Shown here: one piece after another, positions 1 through 38,974 of the stretch | How the letters are laid out: each line of letters starts with the position of its first letter | How positions within the stretch are numbered: position 1 is the first letter of the stretch | Source of the DNA: an uncultured Thermoleophilaceae bacterium | GTDB taxonomy: Bacteria > Actinomycetota > Thermoleophilia > Solirubrobacterales > JACPNS01 | Assembly: GCA_964597975.1 (NCBI GenBank) | Contig: CAZRAA010000002.1 | Coordinates: forward strand, 12,156 to 68,631 | Direction: 5' to 3' | DNA length: 56,476 nt | Program-made: the position numbers and the translations under genes | Notes under the pieces: generated by a model | Databases searched by the model: none | Told to the model about the DNA's origin: nothing | What the model saw: only the letters and a program-made list of their open reading frames with translations

Positions 1-528
1 CTTCACTGTCTTGAGCAGGATCTTCGCGTCGAGCCGGGCGCTGCGGTGGTCGACGTACCAGACGTCCAGATCGATGCGCTCGCTCCAGGGAAGCGCCGCG
101 CGGCCATTGACCTGAGCCCAGCCAGTGATCCCTGGCTTGACTTCCAGCCGTCTCAACTGATGCTCGTTGTACTTCTCGACCTGGCTTCGCACTGTCGGAC
201 GCGGTCCGATGATGCTCATGTCGCCGACGAGCACGTTGATCAGGTTCGGCAGTTCGTCGATCGAAAAGCGTCGTAGCAGCGCACCCGATTTCAGGATGCG
301 CGGATCGTCCTCATCTACCGCAAGGCCCGCCCCGATGCGTTCTGCGTTCTTGACCATCGTGCGCAGCTTCCAGAGCCTGAAGTCACGACCGCCCTTGCCG
401 ACGCGCGCCTGGCGGAAGAACGGCGATCCGGGCGATTCGACGACGATCCAGGCGATCGCGGCCAGCAGCAGAGGACTCGTCACGAGCAACGCAACTGCGG
501 AGACGAATATGTCGAACACCCGGCGCAT
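1..528 (-). CDS. Bacterial sugar transferase (initiating undecaprenyl-phosphate glycosyl-1-phosphate transferase family), 3' end runs off window
   Basis: Manual translation from ATG 528: MRRVFDIFVSAVALLVTSPLL...FFRQARVGKGG..F.LWKLRTM...DDPRI...LRRFSIDELPNLINVLVGDMSIIGPRP, the classic Bac_transf motifs. Absent from the ORF track because there is no stop in the window. Confidence 0.93.
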   Translation of the reverse strand, partial: MRRVFDIFVSAVALLVTSPLLLAAIAWIVVESPGSPFFRQARVGKGGRDFRLWKLRTMVKNAERIGAGLAVDEDDPRILKSGALLRRFSIDELPNLINVLVGDMSIIGPRPTVRSQVEKYNEHQLRRLEVKPGITGWAQVNGRAALPWSERIDLDVWYVDHRSARLDAKILLKTVK

Positions 529-537
529 CGTCGTCGA

Positions 538-1677
538 TCACCGTGTCCCCTCGGGCGGCGTCCACCCCTCATCGAGGATCTGCGCTGTCCCCTTGCGCAG
601 ATAGTCGATCAGGCCGAGCACGATCGCGGCATTGGTCAGCACGTAGTAGCGCGCGACCAGGAACGGCTTGAACTTGATCAACGGAGCCAGGAGCGCTGCG
701 GCGATCAGCGCGAGCTGGAGCATCAAGAGCGCCAGATAGAGCGTCGAGCCTGCCGCAAGCAGTGCGCTGGTGACCAGCGCGCCAAGATGCAGGAACGGCG
801 CCTTGTAGCGCAGCACGCGGTGAGAGAGCATCATCCAGCCGTACGCAAAACCGTAGCCGTGCGGGCTGAGCATTCCTCCGCCGAGCACGATCGGCCAAGC
901 GAAGCTCATCATCCGGCGCTTGCGCCGGAACTCGCCGCCGATACTCGGGACCATGGTCTCGCTGGCGCGGGCTGCCGGGGCGTCGATCGCGCGGCCGCCG
1001 AGCTTGACGACGTTGAACGGCAGCGTCAGATCGTGGCCCGTGACGGGCGCAATCTGCTTGTAGACCTGCGGATTGACGGCGTAGATCGCGCCATTGCCAG
1101 CAGTCACCGAGCGCAGCGCCGACTCGCGCGCGCGCACCCACATCTCGTAGCGCCAGTAAAGGCCCTCCTGATTGTCACCAGCCTCGTTGACGAACTCGAC
1201 GCGGCCGCATACATAATCCACACCGGGCTCCTCGAAGGCGTCGATCAGGCGCTTGAGCGCATCCGGCTCCCACATCGTGTTGGCGTCCGAGAAAGCGATG
1301 ATCTGGCCGCGGGCCTGTTCGACGGCTGCGTTCTGCGCTGCCATCTTGCCGCCGTGCGGCAACTCGAGCACGAGATCCGCGCCGGCCGCACGGGCGAGCT
1401 CAGGCGTCGCATCGGGAGATCCGTCGCAGGCGACGATGATCTCCAGGCGCTCGCGCGGGTAGTCGAGCGCGAGCGCATTCTTCACTTTCTCTTCGATCAC
1501 CGACTCTTCGGCGTAGGCGGCGATTATCAGCGTGACGTCGAAGTACTCGTCGTCGCTCATCTGCTGCGGGACGGGAGCTGGGCGCACGAAGATCGCGAGC
1601 AGCGCCGGGTATCCGAGCTGCGCGTAGAGCAGCGAGCCGGCGCAGAGCCAGAAGATGATTTCGAGCGCGGTGCTCAC
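538..1677 (-). CDS. GT2 family glycosyltransferase (CESA-like, membrane-bound)
   Basis: IIAAYAEE, DGSPD, FSDAN and EFRRKRR motifs; N- and C-terminal TM helices. Confidence 0.9.
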   Translation of the reverse strand: MSTALEIIFWLCAGSLLYAQLGYPALLAIFVRPAPVPQQMSDDEYFDVTLIIAAYAEESVIEEKVKNALALDYPRERLEIIVACDGSPDATPELARAAGADLVLELPHGGKMAAQNAAVEQARGQIIAFSDANTMWEPDALKRLIDAFEEPGVDYVCGRVEFVNEAGDNQEGLYWRYEMWVRARESALRSVTAGNGAIYAVNPQVYKQIAPVTGHDLTLPFNVVKLGGRAIDAPAARASETMVPSIGGEFRRKRRMMSFAWPIVLGGGMLSPHGYGFAYGWMMLSHRVLRYKAPFLHLGALVTSALLAAGSTLYLALLMLQLALIAAALLAPLIKFKPFLVARYYVLTNAAIVLGLIDYLRKGTAQILDEGWTPPEGTR

Positions 1678-1686
1678 GGGCGCGAA

Positions 1687-2787
1687 TTATCGCGCTTTCG
1701 GCGCGAGCGACTCGTAGAGTTCGATCGTTCGGGCGGCGATCTGGCTCCAGGCGAACTCGCCTGACGCAAGCTGCCGCGCGGCGCCAGCGAGGCGTTCGCG
1801 CTCGCCAGGGTTGTCGAGCAGGTGCGAAAGTCCGCGCGCGATCGCCGCAAGGTCGTCGGGTTCGACCGCAAGCGCCGCGCCGTGGTCCCCGGCGATCTCG
1901 GTGAATCCTCCCACGCTGGTGAGCAGCAACGGCTTGCCGAACGCCAGCGCTGTGAAGAGCACGCCCGACTGATCGATCTGCCGATAGGGCAGCGCGACGA
2001 CGTCGGCGCGCTCGAAAAACGCCCCGAGTTCGTCATCGCCGACGAAGCGTTCGATCCACCGCACTCGATCTGCGATCCCAAGGTCGCGCGCCAGCGACTT
2101 CAGCGGCGCGGTGTCCATCCGCGCGGCGCCGACGAGCCAGAGTTCGGCTTCCGGGTCGGCGGCGGCGAAGCCCTCGAGCATCAGATCGATTCCTTTATAC
2201 GGACGCATCAGGCCGAACTGCAGGACGACTGGCCGCTCCACCTCTGCAAACTCCGGCGGGAGCGGCTTTGCGCCCGGAACATCGACCAGATGCTCGAACA
2301 CGCCGTGCGGGATAACGTGGACCTTCTCCTGCGGCACGCTGAGCACTTCAGTCAGCACACCCTTGCCGTGCCTGCTGTGAACGACCACGGCGTCGACCGC
2401 GTTGTAAGTCTTGGAGAGCGCGCCGAGCTGTCCGGGTCGCGGTTCGCGCGGGATCACATCGTGAGCGGTCAGCACCTTCGGTCCGCGCGGCAGGAGATGG
2501 CGGTCGATCGCCTGGATCGGCAGCCACTGGAAGTGCGTGACGTCGACCGCCGGGAGCCGGCGCAGGCGCAGCATGTCGATTGGATGCTGCGCGAGCTTGG
2601 CCGGCAGCGATCCGCCGGCACGATAGAAGTGGTCACGCAGCGTGTAGCCCTCGGCCGCCGGGCGCGGCCCGTGGCGAAATTCCGAGGTGACCAGCTCCAC
2701 ATCTGCCCCTGCAGCCGCAAGCGCCGCGCACAGGGCGTGGTCGTAGGGCGGCGTGTAGGCAGGTGGGTCGACGACTCGGACGCGCAT
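1687..2787 (-). CDS. GT4 family glycosyltransferase
   Basis: GT-B motifs TAHD, VIPHG, FGLMRPYKGID, LPYRQIDQSGVL, VGGFTE. Confidence 0.9.
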   Translation of the reverse strand: MRVRVVDPPAYTPPYDHALCAALAAAGADVELVTSEFRHGPRPAAEGYTLRDHFYRAGGSLPAKLAQHPIDMLRLRRLPAVDVTHFQWLPIQAIDRHLLPRGPKVLTAHDVIPREPRPGQLGALSKTYNAVDAVVVHSRHGKGVLTEVLSVPQEKVHVIPHGVFEHLVDVPGAKPLPPEFAEVERPVVLQFGLMRPYKGIDLMLEGFAAADPEAELWLVGAARMDTAPLKSLARDLGIADRVRWIERFVGDDELGAFFERADVVALPYRQIDQSGVLFTALAFGKPLLLTSVGGFTEIAGDHGAALAVEPDDLAAIARGLSHLLDNPGERERLAGAARQLASGEFAWSQIAARTIELYESLAPKAR

Positions 2788-2831
2788 CGAACGGTGATTA
2801 TCGCGGCTCGCGGACCGGTACGCTCGCGCAG

Positions 2832-3770
2832 GTGAATGAGCGGGCTCTTGACCTCTCCTATTGCATCGTCAACACAAACGGCGGCGAACTGCTGGGGCGG
2901 TGCCTTGACGCGATCGACCAGTACACGCCGCAAGAGCTCACGTATGAGACCCTGCTGCTCGACAACGCCTCCGACGACGGCTCGCCGAAGTACGCCGAGG
3001 GGCGCGAAAAGCTGCGGCTTATCGAGCTCTCAGAGCGCACCGGCAAGGCGGCCAACGACTCAGCCCTCCTGCGCGAGGCGCGCGGCGAGTTCGCCTTGTT
3101 GCTCAACGAGGATTCGGAGATCACGGAGGGCGCAGTCGGTGAACTGCTCGCCGCGCTCAAAGCCGACCCCGAGGCCGCGGCTGCCGGCGCGCTGCTGATG
3201 AACGGCGAGGGCGCCGCCCAGCCGTGCGCGTGGCGTTTCACCAGTGTCACGACCGCACTCGCCGGCGTCTTCTGGCTACACCGCGTCTTCACCGTCCAGA
3301 GCAAGGGCGCCGCGACCCGGAGCGTCGACTGGGCGCAGTCGGCCGCGCTGCTGCTGCGCACAGAGCGTGCCAATGCAATCGGCAACCTCGACGAGGACTT
3401 CTTCGTCTACGGCGACGAGGTCGACCTCTGCAAACGTCTGGCCGACGCAGGCGGACACACGCTCTTCGTCCCTTCCGCGCGGGTCTACCACCGCGAGGGG
3501 CTCTCGCACGGCGACTCGGCCAAGCGGCGAATCGTCGAGTTCCATCGCGGCCGGGACCTCTACATGAGAAAGCATCACGGAGCAGCGCAGGCAGCGATTG
3601 TGCGCGTGCTTGTGAGCATCACCTACCTGGAGCGCGCGTTCGCTGCAGCGCTCACGCGCAAGCATCAGCCGCGCCGGTTCCTCTGGCACGCCCGCGCGGC
3701 GATCGATCCTGCCTGGGGCGAAGGACTGCGCGAGTCAGCGGCCGCGTGGAACGAAGCGCACCGGGGCTGA
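2832..3770 (+). CDS. GT2 family glycosyltransferase (WbbL/rhamnosyltransferase-like)
   Basis: LLDNASDDGS, LLNED, LDEDFFVYGDEVDLC motifs. Start moved to GTG 2832, 7 nt after a TACGCT -10 box. Confidence 0.88.
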   Translation: MNERALDLSYCIVNTNGGELLGRCLDAIDQYTPQELTYETLLLDNASDDGSPKYAEGREKLRLIELSERTGKAANDSALLREARGEFALLLNEDSEITEGAVGELLAALKADPEAAAAGALLMNGEGAAQPCAWRFTSVTTALAGVFWLHRVFTVQSKGAATRSVDWAQSAALLLRTERANAIGNLDEDFFVYGDEVDLCKRLADAGGHTLFVPSARVYHREGLSHGDSAKRRIVEFHRGRDLYMRKHHGAAQAAIVRVLVSITYLERAFAAALTRKHQPRRFLWHARAAIDPAWGEGLRESAAAWNEAHRG

Positions 3771-3774
3771 CGGA

Positions 3775-4125
3775 TCAGCTGACGGCACTGAATGCGAGCG
3801 CCACCGCGCCCGCGTAGAGCAGGCAGAAGATCGTCGTACCGGCCAGGGGCACCCAGAACGCCGTGCGGCTCTGCGCCAGCCGGACCAGGGTGAGCACCAG
3901 CGTGGCGAGAAATCCGATCGCTGGCACCGAGACCGATAGCACCCAGCCGACCACGAATAGCCCAGTGTCGCACTCGCCCACGGAGCCGCAGCTGTCAGTG
4001 GCCATAACGAGGAAGAAGCCGGCAAAGATCAGCGCGGCGGCCAGCAGCGCAGACGCGATCAACAGGACGATCGAGACGACCCGATCGCCGGTCGAATGCG
4101 TTTCAGTCCTAGCCTGCTGCTCCAT
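3775..4125 (-). CDS. Small 3-TM membrane protein with an extracellular Cys pair (MATDSCGSVGECD)
   Basis: Three hydrophobic segments; fills the gap between flanking genes. Confidence 0.7.
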   Translation of the reverse strand: MEQQARTETHSTGDRVVSIVLLIASALLAAALIFAGFFLVMATDSCGSVGECDTGLFVVGWVLSVSVPAIGFLATLVLTLVRLAQSRTAFWVPLAGTTIFCLLYAGAVALAFSAVS

Positions 4126-4145
4126 CCGGGTTTGAAGTATCAGCC

Positions 4146-4185
4146 ACAGGGCGGAGGTATGGATTGATCCATACCTCCGCCTTGT
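4146..4185 (-). terminator. Strong hairpin downstream of the giant gene (intrinsic terminator lacking a U-tract)
   Basis: Perfect inverted repeat GGCGGAGGTATGGAT-TG-ATCCATACCTCCGCC (4150-4181), extendable to 4146-4185, about 20 nt after the stop at 4204. Confidence 0.75.
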
Positions 4186-4203
4186 CCACCGGACTACAAA
4201 TCG

Positions 4204-7200
4204 CTACTTGAAGAACTTGCTACCAGCCGGCACCGTGTAGTCGTACCGGAAGGCCGTGCCGTCGGAATTCGTGACCTCAAAGGTGAAGGTGACGTTCTTC
4301 TTCTGGCACTTCTTCAGCTTCTTGCCCTTGAGGCCACCGCAGAAGGTCTTGAACGGCAGGGCGATCGCGCTGTTCTTGCTGGTGATCGAGAAGCCGCGCG
4401 TGCCGTCAGCGAACGGCGCCTTGAACTGCAGTCGGTTACCCGAGAACTTGAACGCGTCGGACTGGAGTTTCTTGGTTCCGGCCTTACCGGTCAGGTTCTT
4501 CAGGTTCTTCTTCGTGGCCTTCTTCTTCTTGTTGTAAGTGACCAGCTTCTTGTCGACCTTCGTGCCCTTCGGGTAGGAAACGCGCACCGACTTGATCGAC
4601 TTGCAGTTCTCGCCGGTCGTCATCGCGAGTGAGGTCGTCGCCTTCTTGTTGCCCTTCTTCTTGATTCCCTTGGTCGAGACCTTGACCGAGGGGTTGAGGC
4701 ACTGGCGCTGCTGCTCGGCGCAGAAGCCATCGATGCCGATGATCGGGCTCGCGACGCTGACCTGCTGGCCGCTGTGGCTTGTGAAGTTCGTGCTTGCCGA
4801 ACCGCAGACGCCGTTGCTGCGCAACATGACAAGTCCATTCGGTCCGCCGGCGATGCTCATCGTCAAGTCGGTGAAGATCAGGTCGGGCAGGTTCTGGAAT
4901 GTGCTCTGGACCTGGTTGAACTGCGCACCGACGAAGCGGTTCGCTCCACGGATCTGCAGGTTGATCGGCGCAGGGATGTCCATCAACAGATCCGGCAACG
5001 AGGATCCGGAGATGCTCCGGGCCATGTAGACGTTTCCTTCGACCGGAGTCGTCAGCAGCGGCGTGTTGACCGAGACCGTTCCGATCTTCGCGGTCCCCGG
5101 GCAGGCGCGGGCGGCGGCTTGCTCGGCGGTGCAGGCTTGCGCGATACCGGCGACGTTGATGGTCAGAGCCGTCGGCAGCACCACTGTCGTGCCTGCGAGC
5201 GTCGAGTCTCCGACGTTGCTGCCCATCTTGATCGTCCATGCCGGCGGGTTACCCACGCCACCACCGTGGGCGGTGAACGAGAGCGCCGGCGTGAAGGCTC
5301 GCACCGGGCAGCCGGTGGCCTGGTAGGGCATGTCCTGGGACGAAGTAGCCGCCGGCGAGCCCCAGGAGGTCATGCTGGCCGTGATCTGTTGCGCCTTGCA
5401 GTCAGATGCGTTGAAGAGGAACGGCTTGTTTGTGCTCTGCGCGGTGCCCTGCATGTTCACTTCCAGGCGGCTCATATGCGTCGGCACACCCTTGAAGAGC
5501 TTGGGCACGTCCTGGAAATCGACGTCGATTCCGTGGTCGCTTTCGCGGATCTGCACTCGACCCTGGGTGATGTAGTCGCCCAGGTCGTAGTCGCCGGCGA
5601 CGGCCGGGACCTTGATCGACATGCCGGCGATGTCGCCGCCCACGCCCTCGGTCAGGTAGATCGAACCGCTCATCGGCAGGATCTGTCCGTACTGGCCGAT
5701 CGAGACCTGCACGTCGCCGACCTTGCTGGCCGACGAGCAGTTGCCTGCGTTGGCGGTCGCGACCGGGCACTGCGGCACCGCGGCGGCGCTTCCGAGGAAG
5801 CCTTCCGGCAGATGCATCATCACGCGACGGATGTCCTGCTCTCCGTCAGCGCGCGTGAACTCGGTTGAGAAGTTCGGGTGCGCACCAGACTGCGTGGTGC
5901 TGATCGTGTAGCTCGAGGCGGGTGCAAATCCCTTGGCCGTGCCGGCAAGCACGCTGACCGGACTGGTCGAGCTCTTGGTCACCGGCGTCTGGCTGGGTCC
6001 GTCAGACCAGGCGCTCATCGATGCGCCGGCCGCGACCGTCAGCGGATCGGTCGTGCTCGGGTTTTCCGGGTTGAGCAGCAGCGGCTTGACGCCCGATCCG
6101 GCGTCAACTCCGGTGAGGTCCACTTCCATCTCGTCGAACGGAATGTCCGGCAGATCCTTGAACTCGGTGACCAGTTCGCCTTCGTTCACGCCGCTCTCAG
6201 CCACGATGGCGGTGCCACGGATCGTGATCGTCGTCTTGCCGGTCATCTGGATCGCAAGCTTGTAGCGGTCTCCAGCCGTGTTACCCGGGGTCAGCAGGTA
6301 GACCGAACCCCACAGCGAGTGCAGGTCGGGGTTGACGCTGTTCGGATCGGCGACGTTCTTTGGCAGCAGCGATGTGTCGAGCCACGCAGTACCCACGCGC
6401 GACTTGGCTGGGCAGTTCTTTGCTGCCAGCTGGATATTGCTGCAGGTCTCAGATCCATCGGCGGCCGCTGCGCTCAAGCGGAAGCCCGGAAGGCTCAGTG
6501 CCATGTCCTTCATGCCGGCCTGAGTCGCGGCGTCGCCCTGCGAGACCGTGACGCGCAGCTTGGTCGGTGCCTCGGGCACGCGGTCGAGGGGCTGTGAGTC
6601 GTAGGACTCGTCGTTGTAGTTCTCGATATCAACGCTGTTGTCATTGAGGTTGAGGCTCTCACAGCCGGTGAACGGTCCGACCGAGCCGGTCAGGTCGGCC
6701 GGCGAACCGGTTGTGAAGTTGACCGTCGCCTTGATGTCCAGCGCACTCGTGCAGCTGCGCGGATTGGACATGAACGGCTTGTCATCAGCGGTGGGGAGCG
6801 TGCCCTGCTTGGCCATCCCGAAGAGCTTCACGTGCAGTGCGCTGATGCGCACGGGGATCCCTTCAAAGCGCTGCGGCATGTCGCCGGTCTGCGCCCAGAG
6901 GAAGTAGTCGTCGGGGTCGATGTTGACCTCGATCGGGACGACGACGCGGCCAAGATCGAACGGTCCGACCACGACGTGCGAAGCGAAGACCAGCTTGGCC
7001 GGGTGATCGGCGTCGGCGACGACGTTGTAGATCTCGCCGGGCAGCGTGTAGACGTCCTCACTGCTGCCGATGCCGATCTCAACCTCTCCGACCTGCGTCG
7101 CCGCGTCGCAGTTGCCGATCTGGGCGTGGGTGGCGTCGTCAAGGCATGTGGGGGCCGCATCGGCCGATCCGACCAGACCCTTGGGCAGTTCGAACTTGGC

Positions 7201-10200
7201 GTTCAGAATGCTGCGGTTGCCGTCCGGACGCGTGAGGTTCATCGTCACGTCGGAATGCACACCAACGGCCAGAGAATCGACGCTCGCGGTGAGGCCAAGC
7301 GCACCTTCAGGGCCGTTGCAGTTGTTCACGGCGATCGTGTCGGCGGCCTCGACTGCCGGGTCGGTATCGCGGCTCCACGGAACCATCTGCGCGCGAACCA
7401 CGTGGCTGCCGCAAGTTTCAGGGTTGGTCAACAACGCGTGTTTGCCAGATCCCGTCGTGTTGAACTCGACAAGCAGGTTGGAGAACTGCAGGTCGGGCAG
7501 GTTGTCGAACTCGGCGATCACCTGTCCGTTGCCCTGGTTGACCGACCCCAGACCGTCGGCGAGGTCACTCGAGCCGTTGACCGTGGCGCGGCCGTGGACG
7601 ACAAGGCTGCTGCCCGGCAGGCTCACGTAGATGCCGATGCGGTAGCGGTTGGCGGATCCCGTGCCTGGGGTTTCCAGGAAGACGGTGCCGGTCCGCTGGG
7701 TCGGCAGCAGCGGCGTGTCCAGCTTGACGGTGCCGATGCGGCTGTTTGCCGGGCAGGCTGCCCCGCCGGCGTCGACGACCGCCGGGTCGCAGGCCATCTG
7801 CTGGCCGCCGCTGGCAAGGTTTCCGATGCCCGGGTTGATGCTCATTCCGACCGGCAGCGTCGTGCGGATCGACTTCGTCGAGCTGGAGGAGCCGGCGAAT
7901 GCGAAGCCAAGATCAAGGCCGACCGGCTTGCCCGCGTGGCCGTTCGGCTTGAGCGCCACGGAGAGGCTCGGGTTGTATGGCGCCTCATCGCAGCTGTCCG
8001 TCGTGTAGCTGTCGGTGCCGTCGTGCGTCGCGCCCTCACTGGACGTCATGTGCGCCGTGACCGTGTGCGTGTTGCAGCGACTCGGGTTGATCATGAACGG
8101 GTTGCCGTTGACGGTCCCGTCGAGCTTGATCTGCATCTGGCGCACGCGCACCGGGATGCCTTCATAGCGGCTCGGAAGCGTCGTGTGCGTAAGGATGCGC
8201 AGCGTGCTTGCGGTGTTGCCGACGATCTCCGTGGTCACTGGGACGCTCAGCTTGCCGAGGTTGTACGGACCAACCTTCACGCCGAGCACGGCGGCAAGTC
8301 GCGCGGGCTCGTCGTCACTGGAGGTCTCGACGTTGTAGATCCCGCCGGAGAGCGGCAGCGTCTCGTCGCCCGTACCGACGCGGGTGGTCACGTCGCCCAC
8401 ACGCGACGTCTCTGCGCAAGCGGCAAGATTTGCGTCGTCGAGGTCGCAGCGAGGCGTCGCGACTGTGTTGGCGACAAGTCCGGCCGGCAGCTCGATGTCG
8501 AGCTGCTCGAGCTGCTGCGTCTTGTCCTGGCGTGTGATGTCGATCGTCATGTCCGGGTTGCCGGCGGCCTTCGTGTCTGAGAACGACGCGTTGAAGGTCG
8601 GTGCGAAAGGCTCGGCCTCCGGGGCCGGACAAGGGGCGCCCTGGCCGTCGTAGGACGTGACGAACGAGGCCACCGGTTCGGCGGCGATCGTGCCGCTGGT
8701 CGGCATGATCGAGGCGGTGACGTTCTGAGCACCGCAGGTCTCCGGGTTGGTCAACAGCGAGCGCTCGCCGGTGTCAAAGGCGACCGTCATGTTCGTGAAG
8801 CCGAGGTCCGGAATGTCGTCGAACGTCGCCGTCATCTGTCCGGTCGCCGAGGCGTCGGTCGAACCGATGCCGTTGACCAGATCGGTCGAACCGTCGACAT
8901 CGACACTGCCGCGCACGATCAGCTTCTGGCCCGGGACGTTGACCACGATCGCCATCAGATAGCGAGTGGCCGCAGTGCCGCCAGGCGTCTCGAGGTAGAC
9001 CTTTCCGGTCTGCGTTCCCGGTAGCAGCGGAGTCGTCAGCGAGACCGATCCGATCTGGGCGCTGTCACAGTCCGAGAGATCCCCGGCGTCGATCGAGGCA
9101 GTCGGGCAGGTCGACATCGTGGTGCCGAAGCCGTTGCCGAAAGCCGGGTTGATCGTCATGCCCTCGGGCAACTCGGTAGCGATGCTGCCAAACGTCTGGT
9201 TGTCGGCGTCGGAGGTGACGCCGAGTGTGAAGTTGGTCGGCAGGGCGGTCTCGGACGGGTCGACCGAGGCCATGATCGAGGGAGCGGTGGCGAAGCCCGC
9301 CGCGCAGCTGTCGATCGTGAATGAGTCGGTGAGCGTCGAGCTTTCGCCGCCCTGGCCCTCGAGTTCGGCGGTCACGTCGTGGCTGCCGCACTTGCTCGGG
9401 TTGACGACGAAGCGGTTGCCGGAGATCTCGCCGTACATCGTCATGTCGATCGTGCGCATCTGGATAGCGACGCCCTCGAAACGGGTCGGGACGTCGGTCA
9501 CGGCGTCAATCCCGTAGCGCCGCTGCGGGTTGGCGTCGTTGCCGGATCGAATCTTCGTGGAGACCGGGATCACCAGCTTGCCAAGGTCGTACGGGCCGAC
9601 CTGGACGTCGACCGTCGCGGCCAGACGAGCCGGCTCGTCGGAATTCGGCACGACGTTGAATATCTCGCCGCTCATCGCCAGCGGGTCGCCGCCGGCTCCC
9701 ACCGTTGTCGAGAGCTCGCCGACCTTGCTGCCGGCGGCGCAGTTGCCTGCGGCGGCGTCGGCCTGTGAGCACTGGGTCACGGCCGTCGTGTTGGCGACCA
9801 GTCCGACCGGCAGACCGAGCGTCAGCTTCGAGAGCCGCTGGTCCTTCGCGCCTGCCGTGACCTTGAAGTTGAGGTCCGGGCTCGCAGCCTGGGTGTGGTC
9901 GCTCACATCGGCCTCGAACGTCGGCGCGAACGTGTTGTCGCAGCCGGTGCTGACGGCGTCGCTGTCCGTGCGCGTGACCGCCGCGTCCTGCGGCTGCTGG
10001 CCGTCGGCGATGCTCCAGGGGGTCAGCTGCGCGCTGGAGGTGAAGGTTCCACAGGTCTTCGGGCTCGTCAACATCGCGTGGTCGCCAGAGTCGAAGGTGA
10101 CTTCGAGCTTGCTGAACTGGAGGTCTGGCAGGTTGTCGAACACCGCGCTGACCTGACCGGTGCCGCCGCCAACGCCGGTGCCGGTGCCGTTGACCTGCGC

Positions 10201-23487: not shown

Positions 23488-23555
23488 TCGTCCCCGCTTC
23501 AGTTTTCTCTCATCTGCACAGCCCGCAATACCGGGCAAAGTCCGTTACTTGGTAG

Positions 23556-23583
23556 ATGTCGGCCTCCTAAACCGAATCCTTGA
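23556..23583 (-). promoter_or_regulatory. Putative sigma28-family (FliA/WhiG-like) promoter of the giant gene
   Basis: Minus strand reads TCAAG-GATTCGGTTTAGGAG (15 nt)-GCCGACAT, resembling TAAA-N15-GCCGATAA. Confidence 0.6.
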
Positions 23584-23754
23584 ACGCGCTGATACTCAGT
23601 TGCAGGCGCTCTTACACATCGGTCGGTCGCAGTTGGCAACAGGCCCCCCTCCGTGGTGGCCGAACGTACGACGGACTCTGATGTGAGAACACCAGGCTAG
23701 GACCGTCGATGCGGCTTGAACAAGAGGAAAACTGCGTATTTGCGCGCCGCTAGA

Positions 23755-25554: not shown

Positions 25555-25564
25555 ACAGTAATGT
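25555..25564. promoter_or_regulatory. Overlapping divergent -10 hexamers (bidirectional leaderless promoter)
   Basis: + strand TAATGT 25559-25564 lies 7 nt before GTG 25572; - strand TACTGT 25560-25555 lies 8 nt before ATG 25546. Confidence 0.55.
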
Positions 25565-25571
25565 GCGCGAC

Positions 25572-31374: not shown

Positions 31375-31401
31375 GCGGGAGAGGCTAACGGCGCTGGGGC
31401 G

Positions 31402-32616
31402 CTACTGCTGAAAATCTGCTCCAAGCACAACAATCACCGGCACTGATCCGCCCTGGGCGAGGATCTCGTTGGTTGCCGGTTTGATGTCTTTGACTGCCAG
31501 CTCTTTTGCCACCTCTTCGGCCTCGGCTTTGCTGCCTGGCGCGTAGTAGACCACCGTTGTCGCCTGGTTGTCCGGCACGTTGCCGGTGGTGGTGTCGGTG
31601 AAGCCGGCCTTGTTCAGACCATCTGAGGCGGCGCGTGCAAGGCCCTGGGTGTCGGTGCCGTTGAGCACGGAGACCGTGACCGCGGCGCGATTGATGCGCT
31701 GGCTGCGGTCGGCCGTGTTTTGCGAAGGCCGGTTGGCGGCGCTTCCGCCGGTGCCGCTCTTGCCTGTCTCGTCGCCACCACCGAGCAGTTGCGTGGCGAT
31801 CAAGATCACGGCGAAGACGGCCACCAGCACGCCGGCCACGGCGAACGGCACGCGGCTGCGGTGGTCTGACGGCGGGTCGACGGCCTCGAAATGGCCCGAT
31901 CCAGTTGAGCCCGTGGAGAGGTAGTAGTCCGGGATCGGCGGGGAACTCGGCGTGCGCACGGCCGTGAATTCGGAAGTGTCGAGCGGGGGCAGCGGCGGGA
32001 GCGGGCCGGCGGCGCGGGCGGCGGCCGGTGTTGACGGTGTCAGGCGGCTTTGCTCGTCGGACGATTCTTCAGGCTCGTCTGCCTCGTCATTCGGCGCGGG
32101 CTGCGCGACCGTCGCGTCGCCTGCTGCGGCCTCCGCGGCGACCTCGTACTCGGGCGATTCCGAGTCAGACTCCTCGCCTGGCTGCTCGTCGCCTGGGGCA
32201 GCTTCGACGCCGCCGAATTCTTCCGAGACGACGTCATGCGCCTGCGTCTCCTGCGAAACCGGCGGTGCGTCTTCCTCGGGCGATTCGCTGCCGACCACCG
32301 CTTCGGGCGGCGGCACCGTCGCCGGAGGCGGCGTGACCGCGACTCCGGCATCCGCCGCGATTTCGGCGGCGGCATCGGCCTCGCCCTGGCGGTATGCCAT
32401 CGACTCATAGGCCTGGGCGATCGCCTGACTTGCAATCTGCTGGGCGCGCAGCTCCACCTCGGCGGCGCGCTCGGGCTCGCGTCCGGCCCACTCGCGCAGG
32501 CGGCGCACGTCGCGCGCCTGGCTGAAATAGAGCATCGCCAGCACGGCAAGGCCGATGATCCCGGCAAAGCCGGCGATCGCGCCGAAGTTCAGAAGTATGT
32601 CTTTGAGTTCGCCCAA
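31402..32616 (-). CDS. LytR C-terminal (LytR_C) domain protein with two TM helices and an acidic disordered linker
   Basis: VTVSVLNGTDTQGLA...GF...GN...T.VYY.PG...VIVVLGAD at the C-terminus; no LCP catalytic domain. Confidence 0.8.
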   Translation of the reverse strand: MGELKDILLNFGAIAGFAGIIGLAVLAMLYFSQARDVRRLREWAGREPERAAEVELRAQQIASQAIAQAYESMAYRQGEADAAAEIAADAGVAVTPPPATVPPPEAVVGSESPEEDAPPVSQETQAHDVVSEEFGGVEAAPGDEQPGEESDSESPEYEVAAEAAAGDATVAQPAPNDEADEPEESSDEQSRLTPSTPAAARAAGPLPPLPPLDTSEFTAVRTPSSPPIPDYYLSTGSTGSGHFEAVDPPSDHRSRVPFAVAGVLVAVFAVILIATQLLGGGDETGKSGTGGSAANRPSQNTADRSQRINRAAVTVSVLNGTDTQGLARAASDGLNKAGFTDTTTGNVPDNQATTVVYYAPGSKAEAEEVAKELAVKDIKPATNEILAQGGSVPVIVVLGADFQQ

Positions 32617-32668
32617 ATCGGAGAGACCGTGGGCGTTTCAAGCCAGCCCACAGGGGAATCCGAGCAGT

Positions 32669-34585
32669 CTAGGCGTCCGGCAACGCGGATTCCGCCGTCA
32701 ATCCCGCCGCGGCCTGCACCAGCTCGGCCAGCGCCTGCGGCTTGCCGTTCATCATCAGTCGCTCGACCTCGTCAAAGATCTCATCGACGCGCGCGGGATC
32801 CATGTTCTCGCGCTCGGCGCGCACAATCTTCTCGGCCGGGGTGGCCTGCGGGCGCTCGTCCGGATTGAACAGATCCTCGTGCAGCTTCTCGCCAGGCGAC
32901 GGCGCGGTGACGACGATCGGAATGTCGACGTCTGGCTCGAGACCGGCCAGACGAATCATGTTGCGCGCCAGGTCGACGATCTTCACCGGCTCGCCCATCT
33001 CCAAGACAAACACTTCGCCCCCGCGCCCCAGATCGCCGGCGCGGATGATCAGCTGCACGGCCTCCGGGATCGTCATGAAGTAGCGCGACATCTCCGGGTG
33101 GGTCACAGTGACCGGGCCGCCGCCCGTGATCTGACGGCGGAAGATCGGCACGACGCTGCCGCTCGAACCGAGCACGTTGCCGAATCGCACCGAGCAATAG
33201 GTGGTGTCTTCGTGACGCGCCTGCGCCGATTCGATCGCCCACTCGGCGAGCGCCTTGCTCGCGCCCATCGTGGTCTTGGGCTTGACGGCTTTGTCGGTCG
33301 AGACGAGCACGAAGCGGCGCACGCCGTGCTGACCGGCGAGCTCCGCGACTGTGCGCGTGGCGATCGCGTTGTTCCTGATCGCCTCGGTTGGGTTTTCTTG
33401 AACGAGCTGGACGTGCTTGTAGGCGGCGGCGTGGAAGACGATCTCGGGTTTGAACTGTTCGAAGATCTCCTGCATGCGCGGGAGCTCCTTGCAGTCACCA
33501 AGCACCGCTTCAACGCTTCCGAAGTGACGGTCCTCTTCTAGCTCACGGCGGATGTTGAAGAGGTTGTCTTCGGCGTGATCGACGAGGATGATCTTTCGCG
33601 GCCTGACGCGCGCGATCTGGCGGCAGAGCTCCGAGCCGATCGAGCCGCCGGCGCCGGTCACCATCACGACGCCCCCGGCGAGATACGCGCCAACGCGGTC
33701 GAGCTGCATGATCACGGGGTCGCGGCCGAGAATGTCCTCGACCTGCACTTCGCGGAGCTGCTTGACGAGGTCGACGTCGCCGCGCAGCAATTCGAAGACG
33801 GTCGGCAGCGTGCGCACCGGGATGTTGCGCTCACGGCAGGAGGAGACGACCTGCTCGCGCAGCGTTCCCGGCGCGGACGGGATCGCGATGATCACTTCGT
33901 CGGGTTCCGTGTCCTCAAGGATCTTCGGCAGATCGCGGGTGCGTCCGAGGACTTTGAGGCCGAGCATGCGCGAGCCGCCCTTGCGCGGGTCGTCGTCGAC
34001 AAATCCGATCGGGGCTTCGCCAAGCTCAGGGTTCTTGAGCATCTCGCGCGCGACCATCTGACCGCCGTCGCCGGCGCCGATGATCAGGATCTCGCGGCCC
34101 TTGGGCAGGCGGTATCCGCGCGTGGGCTTCTCGACGATCGCGCGCACGGCAAAGCGCGAGCCGGCAACGAGCAGCAGCGTGAGCAGGAAGTCGAATGCGG
34201 CGACCGAGCGCGGGAGCGTGAGGCCATTGGGCTGCACGATGTAGATGCCGCCGATCAGCAACAGGCTCGAGAGCACGACCGCCTGGACGATGCGCGAGAA
34301 GTCATGTGAGTCGGTGTAGCGCCACCACTTCTGGTAGCTGCCAAAGAGCGCGAAGACGGCGACTTTGCCGATCACGGCGAACGGCAAGACGGTCCAGAAG
34401 AGATCCTCGTAGCGGGTCGGGATCCCGCCGATCGCGTCGTAGCGCGCGGGGATCGAGCTGTTGAAGACGAGCCAGAACGCGCCGTAGAAGGCGATCGAAA
34501 CAAGGACGGCGTCGGTCAGGACCTGCTGCGTACGGTGAAGCATCACCGAACGCCGCATCCTGCGGGTCAGGCTGCTGGCGGGCAT
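32669..34585 (-). CDS. Nucleoside-diphosphate sugar 4,6-dehydratase, PglF/CapD family
   Basis: N-terminal TMs; IGAGDGG, TGAGGSIGSELCRQI, FHAAAYKHV, STDKAV, VRFGNVLGSSGSV, RYFMTIPEA motifs. ATG 34585 lies 7 nt after TAGACT. Confidence 0.93.
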   Translation of the reverse strand: MPASSLTRRMRRSVMLHRTQQVLTDAVLVSIAFYGAFWLVFNSSIPARYDAIGGIPTRYEDLFWTVLPFAVIGKVAVFALFGSYQKWWRYTDSHDFSRIVQAVVLSSLLLIGGIYIVQPNGLTLPRSVAAFDFLLTLLLVAGSRFAVRAIVEKPTRGYRLPKGREILIIGAGDGGQMVAREMLKNPELGEAPIGFVDDDPRKGGSRMLGLKVLGRTRDLPKILEDTEPDEVIIAIPSAPGTLREQVVSSCRERNIPVRTLPTVFELLRGDVDLVKQLREVQVEDILGRDPVIMQLDRVGAYLAGGVVMVTGAGGSIGSELCRQIARVRPRKIILVDHAEDNLFNIRRELEEDRHFGSVEAVLGDCKELPRMQEIFEQFKPEIVFHAAAYKHVQLVQENPTEAIRNNAIATRTVAELAGQHGVRRFVLVSTDKAVKPKTTMGASKALAEWAIESAQARHEDTTYCSVRFGNVLGSSGSVVPIFRRQITGGGPVTVTHPEMSRYFMTIPEAVQLIIRAGDLGRGGEVFVLEMGEPVKIVDLARNMIRLAGLEPDVDIPIVVTAPSPGEKLHEDLFNPDERPQATPAEKIVRAERENMDPARVDEIFDEVERLMMNGKPQALAELVQAAAGLTAESALPDA

Positions 34586-34647
34586 GGGGATGAGTCTAAA
34601 GGCGAGCGCGCGGATCTGCCCAAACCCGCACCATCCCATGCGCGGTA

Positions 34648-34669
34648 CTACAAAGATGCATCTTTGTAG
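34648..34669. repeat. Perfect 22-bp AT-rich palindrome CTACAAAGATGCATCTTTGTAG
   Basis: Self-complementary; overlaps the DUF354 stop codon and lies ~50 bp upstream of the dehydratase -10 box. Confidence 0.85.
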
Positions 34670-35670
34670 GTTGCGCCGAGGGCTAGGTTGGCTAGTAGGT
34701 GGGGGTCGCGGCGGATTCGGTCGGTTCCGGGGGCGCCGCGTTTTTCGATCTTTAGGGCGTCTAGGTCTTCGAGGCGGTTGAGGCGGCCTTCTGAGAGGAG
34801 CTGCTCATCCACCGCGCCGATCCGTCCGGCGAAGGTTGTCCAGACCGGCGTCCCCAGGGCCACGGCCTCGCGGTTCATCGTGCCGCCGGCGCCGATCACC
34901 GCGTCGACCAGCGCCACGAGCGAGGGCCCGTCGATCACTCCGCCGGGAATCACGATGTTCGCGTGGGCGAGCTTTGTCAGCTCGGCTCGCTGCTCGGGCG
35001 TCCGCGGCAGCGCCACCACCTGCGCGTCCGGGTCGGCGGCCAGCCGCTCGATCAGCTTGGGGAAAAGCTCGTTCTCGTGGCGGTGGTAGAGCGAGACGTC
35101 GGGCGGTGTGCGCAGCAGCACGAGCTTCTTCGCGCGATCGAGCCCCAACTGGTCGAGCACCCTCTCGTCGGGTTCGAAGTCCGCGAGGTAGTACTCCTCT
35201 TTGAGCCCCGGATACTGAAACACCTTGCCGTGCGCGCCGTACTGATCCAAGACTGCTGGATCGATCGCGTCGGGCACGATCGTCCGCGCCGCCCAGCGGC
35301 AGTTGATCGAGTGCTGCTCGCGCGCCCACTCGTAATCGAACATCGTCACCGAAGGGATCCCGCGCAGCTTCGCCGCGATCGTGATGTCGTTGGAGCCGTG
35401 GCCGATCGCAAGGTCGAAGTCGCGCCCGCGCGACCAGCGCCAGAGCGCAAAGGATCGACTCACCAGCCCCAGTCCCTTGGCCAGCTTCTTCTCGCCGCGA
35501 TGCCGACCGATCGCCGTGTGCGGCATCTCGTATTGATCAAGCAACGCCAGCGTCTGGGCGAAGTCGCGCGCCGTCACCTCGACCTCATGGCCGTCCGCTC
35601 GCAGCACGTCGATCACCGGCCGCAGCACCAAGACGTGCGGGCTGTTGGTGAGGTCAACCCAGATCTTCAA
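34648..35670 (-). CDS. DUF354 family protein (GT-B-like, putative glycosyltransferase/epimerase)
   Basis: MKIWVDLTNSPHV...VTARD...GLKEEYYL..F.PD...GAGGTMNREAVALGTP. Confidence 0.85.
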   Translation of the reverse strand: MKIWVDLTNSPHVLVLRPVIDVLRADGHEVEVTARDFAQTLALLDQYEMPHTAIGRHRGEKKLAKGLGLVSRSFALWRWSRGRDFDLAIGHGSNDITIAAKLRGIPSVTMFDYEWAREQHSINCRWAARTIVPDAIDPAVLDQYGAHGKVFQYPGLKEEYYLADFEPDERVLDQLGLDRAKKLVLLRTPPDVSLYHRHENELFPKLIERLAADPDAQVVALPRTPEQRAELTKLAHANIVIPGGVIDGPSLVALVDAVIGAGGTMNREAVALGTPVWTTFAGRIGAVDEQLLSEGRLNRLEDLDALKIEKRGAPGTDRIRRDPHLLANLALGATYKDASL

Positions 35671-35682
35671 CGCGCACAGCCC

Positions 35683-36774
35683 TCACGCAGTCGCACGCGC
35701 CGCAGAGAGCGCCGCAACGACCGCCTGCACATCTTCCTCGCGCAGCGTCGGACTCATCGGCAGCGCGAGGTTGCGCGCGGAGGCGAGATCCGTGACCGGC
35801 AGATCCGCGTCCTGCTCGGTCGCCGGCTGACGGTGGATCGGCGTGCGGTAGTAGCCGCGCGCCTCGACGCCGGCCTCGGCCAACTGCGCCGCGACTGCGT
35901 CGGGCTCATCGAGCTGCACCACATAAAGGTGGTAGACCGACTCGGCGCCCTCGATGACAACTTGCGGCGCGGCCAGCTCGGCAATACCCGCGGCGGCGTA
36001 GGCGGCAGCCGCCTCCTGGCGACCCGCATTCCAGCGGTCGATCTGCGGCAGCAGCACGCGCAGCAGCGCTGCCTGCATCGCGTCGAGTCGCGAGTTGTAG
36101 CCGACCAGCGTGTGTAGCTGCTTGTTGGTTGTGCCGTGGTGACGCAGCAATCGGGCGGTCTCGGCGATCTCAGCGCTCCCGGTCGTGATGATCCCGGCAT
36201 CGCCGAAGGCACCGAGGTTCTTCGACGGGAAGAAGCTGAAGGTCGCAACGTCGCCAAGCGCCCCCGCGCGCACGCCGTGCAGCGTCGCGCCGACCGCCTG
36301 CGCGGCATCCTCGACGATCTTGAAGCCGTGCTCGTCGGCCAGCGGCCGCAGCGCTCCGACCGGCGCGGGCAATCCGAACAGGTGCACGGCGATCACGGCC
36401 GTCGTGTTCTCGGTGATCGCTGCAGCGACGGTCTCCGCGGTGACGTTCATCGTCTCGGGGTCGATGTCGCAGTAGACGACGTTGGCGCCGATCGTCAGCG
36501 CCGCCTCGGCGCTCGCATAGAAGGTGAATGACGGCACGACGACATCGTCGCCCGGCTGCACGCCGGCTGCGCGCAAAGCAATCGAGAGCGCGTCCGTGCC
36601 ATTGCCGACGCCGATCGCGTGGTCGACGCCGACGTACTCGGCGAACTCGGCCTCGAACGCGGCGACCTCCGGGCCGAGGATGTAGCGGCCGCTGTCCATC
36701 ACGCGCGCGATGGCGGCGTCGAGCTCGGGGCGCAGGCCCTCGAGTTGGGAGGCGGTGTCAAACAGCGGAATCAT
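35683..36774 (-). CDS. DegT/DnrJ/EryC1/StrS sugar aminotransferase
   Basis: NGTDAL, VHLFG, VEDAAQA, FSFFPSKNLGAFGDAG and GYNSRLD motifs. Confidence 0.93.
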   Translation of the reverse strand: MIPLFDTASQLEGLRPELDAAIARVMDSGRYILGPEVAAFEAEFAEYVGVDHAIGVGNGTDALSIALRAAGVQPGDDVVVPSFTFYASAEAALTIGANVVYCDIDPETMNVTAETVAAAITENTTAVIAVHLFGLPAPVGALRPLADEHGFKIVEDAAQAVGATLHGVRAGALGDVATFSFFPSKNLGAFGDAGIITTGSAEIAETARLLRHHGTTNKQLHTLVGYNSRLDAMQAALLRVLLPQIDRWNAGRQEAAAAYAAAGIAELAAPQVVIEGAESVYHLYVVQLDEPDAVAAQLAEAGVEARGYYRTPIHRQPATEQDADLPVTDLASARNLALPMSPTLREEDVQAVVAALSAARATA

Positions 36775-37412
36775 CAATCTGTTTCTCTCAGCCGGACGTA
36801 CGTGATCCGCGCCAAGAAGACGATGATCGCAAACAGCACGACGGTCGAAAACAGCTCGGCGTACTGCTCGACGATCTCCCAGCGCTCGCCGAGTTGGTAC
36901 CCGGCTCCGATCAGCACCGAATTCCAGACGAGCGCGCCGGCGAAAGTCAGCGGAATGAAGCGCACGAGCGGCATGCGCTCAACGCCGGCCGGCAGCGAGA
37001 CCAGGCTGCGGAAGATCGGCAGCATGCGGCCGAAGAACACCGCCAGCTGGCCGTGCCGAGCAAACCATTCCATCGTGCGATCGATGTCGGAGACCTTGGC
37101 CAGCGGCATCCGCTCGGCGATCGCGCGGGTGCGCTCGAGTCCGACCACCGCGCCTGCCCAGTAGAGCACCAGAGCCCCCACGAGAGATCCGAGCGAACTC
37201 CATCCGATCGCCCCGATCAGCGAGAATGCAGCATCCGGGCTGCTCGCCGTGAACCCGGCAAGCGGCAGCACGAGTTCGCTGGGGATCGGCGGGAAGACGT
37301 TCTCGAGAGCGATCGCCAGCGCCAGGCCGACGCCGCCGAGCTCGTTCATCAGATCCACGAGGAATCCGGTGACTCCACCGAGTTGATTGGGGTCTGTGAT
37401 CGCGTGCAGCAA
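36774..37412 (-). CDS. DedA family membrane protein
   Basis: LENVFPPIPSELVLPLAGF, FFGRMLPIFRSLVSLPAG. Probable TTG start at 37412. Confidence 0.9.
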   Translation of the reverse strand: MLHAITDPNQLGGVTGFLVDLMNELGGVGLALAIALENVFPPIPSELVLPLAGFTASSPDAAFSLIGAIGWSSLGSLVGALVLYWAGAVVGLERTRAIAERMPLAKVSDIDRTMEWFARHGQLAVFFGRMLPIFRSLVSLPAGVERMPLVRFIPLTFAGALVWNSVLIGAGYQLGERWEIVEQYAELFSTVVLFAIIVFLARITYVRLRETD

Positions 37413-37441
37413 GGCGCACAAGATGCCATACTCGCGCGCCG

Positions 37442-38137
37442 ATGTACGCATACCTGCAAGTGCAAGCGGCCTCGATCACCGAGCCGATCGTCAACTTCGC
37501 CGTTGACGTCACCGAGAAACTCGGCCTCTGGGGCATCTTCATCCTGATGGTGCCCGAGAGCGCGCTGATTCCGATTCCCAGCGAGGCGACGATGCTGTTC
37601 GCCGGCTTCAACGTCTCGGAGGGCACCTATCCGTTCTGGGCGGCGGTACTGGTCGGCTCGGTCGCAAACGTCGTCGGCTCCTGGATCGCCTACGCGATCG
37701 GCTACTACGGCCGCATGGACCTGATCGAGAAGCACGGCCACAAGTTGCACATCAAGCCTTCCCACCTGCAGTGGACCGACCAGTGGTTCGAGCGCCACGG
37801 AAACGCGACCGTCTTCTGGGCGCGCATGATGCCGATCGTGCGCACCTTCATCTCACTGCCGGCCGGCGTCGCGCGGATGCCGTTCTGGAAGTTCACGCTC
37901 TACACGTTCGCCGGCTGCGTTCCGTGGATGATGCTGCTGACCGGGATCGGCTACTACGCCGGAGAGAACTGGGAGCAGTGGAAGGACTACCTCCACTACA
38001 TCGACTACGCCGTCGCGCTTGTGATCGTCGGCTCTGCGGTTTGGCTGTTCATGCGCTGGCGCAAGAATCGCAACGACGGATCGCCTGAAGTCGAAGCCGC
38101 GGTCCAGGCGGTCAACGAGGACAACCCGGACATCTAG
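37442..38137 (+). CDS. DedA family membrane protein
   Basis: ESALIPIPSEATMLFAG, WARMMPIVRTFISLPAG. Confidence 0.92.
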   Translation: MYAYLQVQAASITEPIVNFAVDVTEKLGLWGIFILMVPESALIPIPSEATMLFAGFNVSEGTYPFWAAVLVGSVANVVGSWIAYAIGYYGRMDLIEKHGHKLHIKPSHLQWTDQWFERHGNATVFWARMMPIVRTFISLPAGVARMPFWKFTLYTFAGCVPWMMLLTGIGYYAGENWEQWKDYLHYIDYAVALVIVGSAVWLFMRWRKNRNDGSPEVEAAVQAVNEDNPDI

Positions 38138-38146
38138 GCTCGCGGC

Positions 38147-38974
38147 ATGAGCGAGCCCGCCGCAAAGCTCCCGGTGCTCGAGGCGCTGGCCTACGGCGTG
38201 ATCCAGGGTCCGACCGAGCTGCTGCCGATCTCAAGCTCCGGCCACCTAGTGCTTGCGCCGCACCTGCTTGGCAGCGACTACGTCGACCTTGATCCTGCGC
38301 TGCGCAAAACGTTTGAGGTGGCGCTGCACGCCGGCACCGCAGCAGCGCTGGTGATCGTGCTGCGCGACGAGGTGCTCGAGGCCGTGCGCGAGGTCGACGG
38401 ACGGCGCATCGGAATGGTGGTGAGCTCGATGGCGCCCGCCGCTGTTGCCGCGCTCGGGCTGGAGAAGGTGATCGAGGAGAAACTCAGCCGCCCGGAGATC
38501 GTCGTCGTTGGTCTTGTTGCCGGTTCGGCCGCGATGGCCTGGGCCGACGGGCTCGCCGGGACGCGTGAGCGCGCCGATGCCGACTGGCGTGACGGGCTGG
38601 CGCTCGGCTTTGCGCAGGCGGTGGCGCTGATCCCGGGGGTCTCGCGCAGCGGCTCGACGATCGTGGCAGCGCGTGCCCGCGGGTTTGATCCGCTGAGCGC
38701 GACGGAACTATCGATGCATGTTGCGCTGCCGGTGATCGCCGGGGCCACTGCACTCAAAGCTGCGCGTGCTCGACAACAGGGCCTGCCGCGCGAGTTGCGT
38801 GCGCCACTGGCCGCGGGAGTTGCCGGAGCGTTCGTCAGCTCGCTCTTGAGCGCGCGGCTACTCGCAAGCAAAAACCGCGGCAGGGGTCTGATGAAGTACG
38901 TGATCTACCGGCTGGCGCTAGCGGCCGGGGTCACGCTGTTCGCTCGTCGCCGTCGTCTAGATTCAGCGCAGTGA
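38147..38974 (+). CDS. uppP: Undecaprenyl-diphosphate phosphatase (BacA/UppP)
   Basis: QGPTELLPISSSGHL and ALIPGVSRSGST signature motifs. Confidence 0.93.
   Translation: MSEPAAKLPVLEALAYGVIQGPTELLPISSSGHLVLAPHLLGSDYVDLDPALRKTFEVALHAGTAAALVIVLRDEVLEAVREVDGRRIGMVVSSMAPAAVAALGLEKVIEEKLSRPEIVVVGLVAGSAAMAWADGLAGTRERADADWRDGLALGFAQAVALIPGVSRSGSTIVAARARGFDPLSATELSMHVALPVIAGATALKAARARQQGLPRELRAPLAAGVAGAFVSSLLSARLLASKNRGRGLMKYVIYRLALAAGVTLFARRRRLDSAQ

Follow-up and report, generated by a model that had tools for sequence, protein, structure and literature searches.

A giant protein of predicted Ig-like domains encoded within an order-wide Wzx/Wzy-type wall polymer locus of Solirubrobacterales

Giant surface proteins made of tandem immunoglobulin-like (Ig-like) domains, such as Bap, PrgB and antigen I/II, are very long exported chains of repeated beta-sandwich domains with a variable repeat number and conserved ends, and SiiE and LapA are further representatives of this kind. 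Another arrangement is that of Lactobacillus SlpA, whose cationic C-terminal TAB domain binds teichoic acid (PMC11181022). Here we describe a protein resembling both, encoded in a 56,476-nucleotide stretch of DNA (hereafter the window) from an uncultured Thermoleophilaceae bacterium (contig C2:12156-68631 of the genome G000, 2.2 Mb and 93% complete; other G numbers designate the relatives compared). Homologues of the window proteins are labelled Solirubrobacterales. This protein, referred to as the giant, is encoded among genes for an undecaprenyl phosphate (Und-P)-linked glycopolymer and is probably a fibrillar surface protein that adheres by charge to an anionic wall polymer of general use, the predicted product of this order-wide locus. 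It combines known kinds of elements, namely a repetitive Ig-like surface fibre, a cationic wall anchor and a Wzx/Wzy polymer, and a dedicated envelope system is not demonstrated.

The giant open reading frame (4204-23538, minus strand; coordinates are those of the window) encodes 6,444 aa without internal stop, the likely start being ATG 23487 or GTG 23430. It opens with a hydrophobic, signal-peptide-like segment recognised by eye and ending in an A-x-A site (23362..23430, -), continues with a body of 28 units of about 205-275 aa (4699..23361, -) and closes with a Lys-rich tail of 175 aa (4207..4731, -). The units strictly alternate between two types, A and B, with mean identities of 36% (A-A), 34% (B-B) and 19% (A-B), the two types being themselves homologous (HHalign 99.4%), and exactly four Cys are found in 24 of the 28. 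The highest identity between any two units is 53%, and all 28 units recur in unchanged succession in the relative G004, with 90-100% identity to G000, which rules out an assembly artefact.

Sequence searches of Pfam, NCBIfam and the PDB gave no match to the giant or to its separate units and tail, and all clusters retrieved from the ESM Atlas were unnamed ones of Actinomycetota, whose recognition values fell short of the reliable range of the tool. The AlphaFold (AF2) model of an A-B-A piece, based on an 84-row alignment, is nearly all beta (pLDDT 95.1, pTM 0.88). In structural alignments the units matched best YcnI (Z 10.8, root-mean-square deviation (rmsd) 2.4 over 115 residues), and Ig-like domains of pilins and MSCRAMMs followed with Z 7-9. 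The units are predicted from these models to fold as Ig-like beta-sandwiches, and an extended chain of 28 such domains would, at usual domain sizes, span roughly 100 nm or more. The very long chain, the repeated beta-sandwiches, the variable repeat number and the conserved ends are shared with the giant Ig-like adhesins. Conversely, the giant differs from them by the lack of sequence similarity to any PDB chain, by larger units (about 215 aa) in strict A/B alternation with four Cys, by a cationic terminal domain in place of an LPXTG motif or a type 1 secretion signal, and by the lack of a recognisable tip. A DsbA and VKOR gene pair at 41803-43048, 3 kb past the UppP gene, is a likely source of disulfides for a Cys-rich giant.

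The cationic tail announced by a preliminary description of this DNA is borne out by its composition: the last 175 aa contain 41 Lys and Arg versus 9 Asp and Glu (net +32), and the body 360 versus 600. The tail model (pLDDT 90) aligns to an Ig-like SpaD domain with a Z of 7.5, a value that common arrangements also reach (rmsd 3.6 over 126), and HHalign gives probabilities of only 8% and 29% against the A and B units, so that homology between tail and repeats is unsupported. Neither an LPXTG motif nor a transmembrane segment is visible in the C-terminal region. Cationic C-termini occur in 24 of 193 signal-peptide-like proteins of G000 versus 17 of 1,164 others, counts that rest on crude gene calls of our own and crude signal-peptide calls, and in 90 of 102 homologues. 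As such tails are common among the secreted proteins of G000, electrostatic anchoring would be a genome-wide habit. In G000, the tail profile matched only the giant and a paralogue on contig C12, and the other cationic tails are consequently alike in charge and not in detectable sequence. Anchoring by charge through the tail appears the most economical reading and a reasonable one. It recalls SlpA, which has a signal peptide, a beta-rich body and a cationic C-terminal domain for which binding to an anionic polymer of the wall has been proposed (PMC11181022). The giant differs in having no SlpA Pfam match, a tail predicted as an Ig-like sandwich and a more than tenfold greater length, and a lattice would be hypothetical in its case. 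Other large (1,400-2,800 aa) Ser/Thr-rich exported proteins are encoded in G000 at C3:20993-31324, C7:14608-34667, C20:5041-12555 and C9:37510-44403, some with cationic C-termini; they are unrelated to the family of the giant or match it weakly.

The giant belongs, as one of the long members, to an unnamed family which, among our samples, was seen only in Solirubrobacterales. The family profile gathered 5,613 clusters at 50% identity (E up to 0.001) and matched 134 of 301 genomes of the order and none of the 385 genomes of a phylum sample outside it. Its usual member consists of ABAB plus tail, about 1,000 aa (67 of 102 matches), and G000 has four paralogues of 2 to 8 units beside SPFH/ffh, smpB and fumarase genes. 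The family is present in all 14 genus relatives, where the eight complete genes follow the formula (AB)n plus tail with 10, 20, 24, 24, 28, 28, 28 and 32 units. Their end units are positional orthologues across the genus, mapping to the ends of the G000 protein, and the middle varies by whole AB pairs. A family gene probably entered the slot between the glycerol-1-phosphate dehydrogenase (G1PDH) and GT2 genes in the genus ancestor and grew there by gaining internal AB pairs. The giant of G009 (C11:1-17378, L019) is split into three frames, by true frameshifts or assembly errors. In another family, a 22-unit member of 4,872 aa (G127:C8, L124-L125) was independently lengthened beside an oligopeptide ABC transporter. 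Family genes of 12 and 6 units lie between maf and mreB in G235 (L127:15753-16796 with L128:5118-5609) and G124 (L131), on the same strand as the mreBCD-pbp-rodA operon, and five occur in tandem (6, 8, 4, 4, 4 units) in G175:C63 (L129-L130). No paper was found on this family or this locus, nor on surface proteins or wall polymer genes of Thermoleophilia, in a search that mostly did not cover subscription journals and did not include supplements; the main text of a giant-gene preprint (10.1101/2023.11.21.568195) mentions neither Thermoleophilia nor Solirubrobacter.

The preliminary description proposed that the giant belongs with the surrounding locus, which could be compared across relatives. 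Within the genus this linkage holds: the repeat gene directly follows G1PDH in all 13 relatives in which G1PDH was found (in G013 a 4-unit paralogue comes first), and in 11 of 14 the C-terminal end of the giant adjoins the GT2 gene or is at most 11 kb away from it. The gene is therefore not the sporadic insertion named there as grounds for rejecting the proposal. However, gene order in the genus is conserved well beyond the locus, through pknB-pbpA-rodA, so that this linkage amounts to one ancestral event rather than independent evidence. On a wider scale (41 genomes), a GT4 orthologue was found in 39 and a DUF354 orthologue in 40. The core locus was examined in 22 non-genus genomes of four families (8 f2, 5 f3, 5 f4, 4 f5), leaving out G018, G019, G026 and G027 (core locus not seen in the stretches examined), G028 (partial) and G029 (contig cut), whose examined stretches gave no repeat match either. 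None of the 22 has a repeat gene in the core locus, 13 having the family elsewhere and 9 being without match; all eight f2 loci present the full order, including the three genes likely devoted to glycerol-1-phosphate (the G1P trio), with 0.5-3.8 kb and no repeat gene between G1PDH and GT2. None of five long frames outside the genus and none of the four G000 paralogues is beside the locus, and only one of 16 regions with ordinary members is near it, in a different slot about 5 kb from UppP (G103). Divergent G1PDH loci (18 of 20 examined, G254 and G266 being left out) include a nucleotidyltransferase gene in 18 of 18, a CDP-alcohol transferase match in 10 and a repeat gene in none; a scan of the genome contigs with G1PDH retrieved only 7 loci.

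The giant, the G1P trio and the core locus thus constitute three separable modules. The notion of a system dedicated to the giant is not supported by the 22 non-genus loci without a repeat gene, the long members encoded elsewhere and the genome-wide cationic tails. As related families carry the same cluster without the giant, the locus is probably general cell-wall machinery of Solirubrobacterales, not a kit built for this protein. Another possibility is that the giant is a positional neighbour only, anchored to another polyanion (polysaccharide, lipid, peptidoglycan or extracellular DNA) without physical link to the product of the locus. Consistent with this view, long members elsewhere adjoin the oligopeptide ABC transporter (G127), maf/mreB (G235, G124) or genes for a carboxylase and PhoD (G175), RHS debris and genes without relation to the locus accumulate in the slot as well, the genus synteny runs on through pknB-pbpA-rodA regardless, other glycan loci exist in G000, and the giant has its own conserved upstream motifs. 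Two such motifs (23558-23662, -), each present once in G000 and conserved in several genus relatives, likely mark its own promoter region; no Rfam match, tRNA, sigma-70 promoter or terminator was found. Against it, the locus is conserved order-wide, as seen from the GT4 and DUF354 counts, and carries genes of Und-P recycling, for which reason its product is the most likely candidate for an abundant wall polyanion, and we regard mere neighbourhood as rather unlikely. In the slot between giant and GT2, G012 has a 2,236-aa RHS protein (L014:11935-18645) and G002 has RHS fragments (L010:2141-4334).

All the genes named in the preliminary description were recovered in the order given when checked by open reading frame and, unless stated otherwise, by Pfam. 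At the left edge, a PglC-like sugar-phosphate transferase gene (Bac_transf; 1..528, -) is cut at its 3' end by the window start and a 100-N scaffold gap at base 1, beyond which the genes look, by eye, unrelated to glycans. It is followed by genes for a GT2 glycosyltransferase of the order-wide core locus (538..1677, -), the GT4 glycosyltransferase (1687..2787, -) and a second GT2 glycosyltransferase convergent with the giant (2763..3770, +; likely start near 2832). On the other side of the giant come the G1P trio, formed by a G1PDH-like Fe-ADH (23755..24831, -), a LicC/IPCT-like nucleotidyltransferase (NTP_transf_3; 24824..25546, -) and a CDP-alcohol phosphotransferase (CDP-OH_P_transf; 25563..26486, +), then a Wzx-like flippase (Polysacc_synt; 26409..27944, -) and a Wzy_C family membrane protein (27941..29494, -), a candidate polymerase, ligase or oligosaccharyltransferase. 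Further along are a LytR_C-only membrane protein without LCP catalytic domain (31402..32616, -), a PglF/CapD-like 4,6-dehydratase (Polysacc_synt_2; 32669..34639, -), a DUF354 protein (34648..35670, -) which is outside the core locus in f2 and f5, a DegT aminotransferase, likely WbpE-type (C3) (35683..36777, -), two DedA (VTT) proteins (36774..37451, -; 37442..38137, +) and the UppP/BacA undecaprenyl-diphosphatase (38147..38974, +). Two genes had not been listed: that of a small DUF6264 membrane protein (3775..4125, -), in the variable slot after the giant, and that of an exported FlgD_ig/DMFA2_C-like protein of 627 aa (29491..31374, -), which is conserved throughout the order at this place of the locus, with Wzy_C and LytR_C as neighbours, and is frequently truncated in f5. 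The constituents of a Wzx/Wzy-dependent locus, namely an initiating phosphoglycosyltransferase, glycosyltransferases, Wzx and a Wzy-like protein, are thus all present by Pfam, and neither a Wzz chain-length regulator nor an LCP ligase was found in the window, G000 having one Wzz (C8) and two LCP genes (C67, C96) elsewhere. Two more Wzy_C-containing glycan loci are found in G000, at C8:22146-34822, with the only Wzz match of the genome, and at C58:6404-11034. The window also includes, at 40160-53024, a PknB-pbpA-rodA-PP2C-FHA-FHA cluster, two extra Ser/Thr kinases and a D-Ala-D-Ala ligase.

Two gene sets suggest how the polymer could acquire charge. The WbpA-B-E-D-I pathway makes UDP-ManNAc3NAcA (PMC10622841), and 2,3-diacetamido uronic acids are reported in Streptomyces wall polymers (10.1101/2025.04.24.650519). 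In G000, contig C6 (C6:18000-22050, L092:8000-12050) displays in a row an epimerase, a UDP-sugar 6-dehydrogenase, a Gfo/Idh/MocA oxidoreductase and a QdtC-like hexapeptide acetyltransferase, with no DegT gene among them; going by these predicted activities, the row would correspond to that pathway minus WbpE. In the PDB, WbpE (E 5e-78) and QdtB are among the best matches of the DegT protein, and perosamine synthase and ArnB rank behind them. Of 40 relatives, 31 have a match to the WbpB-like oxidoreductase, and in seven (all six f5 genomes and G034) neither its gene nor DegT was found, these relatives being kin and their counts not independent. In G029 the DegT orthologue abuts a wbpA-wbpB-like pair on the opposite strand. 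DegT looks more like the WbpE completing a di-N-acetyl-uronic-acid pathway encoded on C6 than like a partner of PglF, although in G000 the pathway would be split over two loci and its activities are predicted. Of the Und-P-linked amino-deoxysugar glycan bearing glycerophosphate that had been proposed, the Und-P-dependent Wzx/Wzy-type locus with a G1P-activating trio stands, whereas the association of PglF with DegT is open to doubt, since DegT falls among the C3 aminotransferases and goes along with the WbpA/B/D/I-like cluster.

The second set is the G1P trio. The TagD/TagF teichoic acid pathway and the araM region of Streptomyces, where araM, a nucleotidyltransferase gene and a CDP-alcohol transferase gene adjoin tagGH (PMC13118837), likewise combine a predicted CDP-glycerol supply with wall-polymer genes. 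In the present locus, TagD is replaced by a G1PDH of archaeal type together with a LicC-like transferase, TagGH is lacking, and export is predicted to occur through Wzx. No TagF was found: the TagB/TagF polymerase family (PF04464) had no match in G000 at 93% completeness, the controls being matched in 3 of 14. The G1PDH-like protein has 5FB3 as best PDB match (E 3e-41, metal-site motifs aligned), and the nucleotidyltransferase is nearest to LicC-type enzymes. Both the uronic-acid and the G1P modules would make the polymer anionic. Enzymes of the CDP-alcohol transferase family normally make lipids or solutes, and the trio could accordingly make a lipid head group or a compatible solute instead of a polymer substituent. 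The nearest NCBIfam families of its last two genes are indeed IPCT/DIPPS and inositol-lipid synthases, all far below cut-off. Conversely, the trio has Wzx on one side and the glycosyltransferases on the other in f1 as well as in f2, its Streptomyces counterpart adjoins tagGH (PMC13118837), and no TagF-family gene that would otherwise use CDP-glycerol was found in G000; a lipid or solute product appears unlikely.

An S-layer or other lattice, in which AB units would self-assemble into a surface array anchored by the tail, has some arguments in its favour. The signal-peptide-like start, the Ig-like domains and the cationic C-terminal domain correspond to the SlpA layout (PMC11181022), the codon adaptation of the giant is at about the 92nd percentile (on a weak reference of four genes, one a false pick), and the family is abundant across the order, as its 134 matched genomes indicate. 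However, the ends are fixed and the number of units between them is free to vary (2 to 32 in all), a pattern more in keeping with a stalk than with a lattice. In Foldseek, S-layer structures come far down the ranking (TM at most 0.17), and more than half of the sampled genomes of the order have no family match. Moreover, the known S-layer anchor domains (SLH, SlpA/TAB, CWB2) gave no Pfam or NCBIfam match on the giant or its tail. A lattice is therefore quite improbable.

Least tenable is a dedicated glycosylation system, in which the Wzy_C protein would be an O-oligosaccharyltransferase placing an undecaprenyl diphosphate (Und-PP)-linked glycan on Ser/Thr of the giant: the presence of Wzx and Wzy_C without Wzz or a catalytic LCP gene inside the locus, the PglC-like and PglF-like genes and the perfect linkage in the genus are in its favour, but the same locus occurs in the 9 genomes without repeat-family match and the 13 with the family elsewhere, and we hold it for very unlikely. 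Some protein-glycosylation loci do have Wzx and Wzy_C without Wzz or LCP, and PglL/TfpM systems share with this locus a Wzy_C-family membrane protein accompanied by Wzx, PglC-like and PglF-like genes; here, however, the Wzy_C protein scores 21.1 bits against TfpM for an NCBIfam cut-off of 600, and shows only Wzy_C and no PglL-specific domain in Pfam, and the distribution of the locus does not track the proposed acceptor. The description of the giant as Ser/Thr-rich is correct to a moderate degree, its Ser plus Thr content of 19.7% ranking 22nd among 869 proteins of at least 300 aa, but its four paralogues outside the locus reach 16.6-20.1%, and no long Ser/Thr linkers are present. Glycan decoration of these residues consequently receives no positive evidence, and a general oligosaccharyltransferase may act on many secreted proteins, the giant included.

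The preferred reading remains that of a fibre held by charge. The giant would be exported via its signal peptide as 28 Ig-like beta-sandwiches stapled by disulfides; its Lys-rich C-terminal domain would tether it non-covalently to the anionic wall polymer of the surrounding locus, and its acidic body would extend outwards as a fibre serving adhesion or spacing. The core genes (PglC-like, GT2/GT4/GT2, Wzx, Wzy_C, FlgD-like, LytR_C, PglF and UppP) would build an Und-PP-linked repeat, flipped by Wzx and then passed to the Wzy_C protein, a candidate polymerase or ligase. Two optional modules could add negative charge, one with DegT as the missing WbpE of the WbpI/A/B/D-like cluster on C6 (di-N-acetyl uronic acid), the other with the G1P trio (glycerophosphate).

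Several observations weigh against this reading. Similarity to known folds is modest, with Z not exceeding 10.8 and Foldseek TM to multi-Ig chains not exceeding 0.28, and reveals no function. Nothing like a distinct tip domain for ligand binding is seen, unit 1 being the ordinary first unit of the family. The linkage in 13 of 13 relatives could reflect selection and not just inheritance. No sortase was found in G000, but with a genome 93% complete this blank is no proof of absence. As regards the polymer, the best NCBIfam match of DegT is the C4 enzyme PseC (226 bits, below the cut-off of 423). The WbpB-like oxidoreductase, in this also distinct from the described pathway, had no match at E 1e-20 among structures named WbpB or WlbA, and its presence is discordant with that of DegT in three of 40 relatives, G021 and G025 having a DegT orthologue without WbpB match. 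The G1PDH score in NCBIfam is 237 bits versus a cut-off of 413, so that its substrate is putative. Finally, the Wzy_C loci on C8 and C58 could supply the tail-binding polymer instead.

Thermoleophilia are common soil and freshwater actinobacteria, for which the window provides a concrete model: a polymer locus that is conserved and can take up charge modules, an Ig-like family that is large and unnamed, and a cationic anchor of generic type. With their small size, the 175-aa tail and the three G1P enzymes lend themselves to direct expression and assay. More tentatively, Solirubrobacterales might possess a sortase-free display system, in which dozens of exported proteins per genome would dock by Lys-rich Ig-like ends on a single Wzx/Wzy polymer common to the order, which would owe its anionic character to di-N-acetyl uronic acid and, in some families, also to archaeal-type sn-glycerol-1-phosphate. 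The genus would then have placed its largest client, a disulfide-stapled fibre of 20-32 domains from an unnamed family of more than 5,000 clusters, inside the locus of the docking polymer itself.

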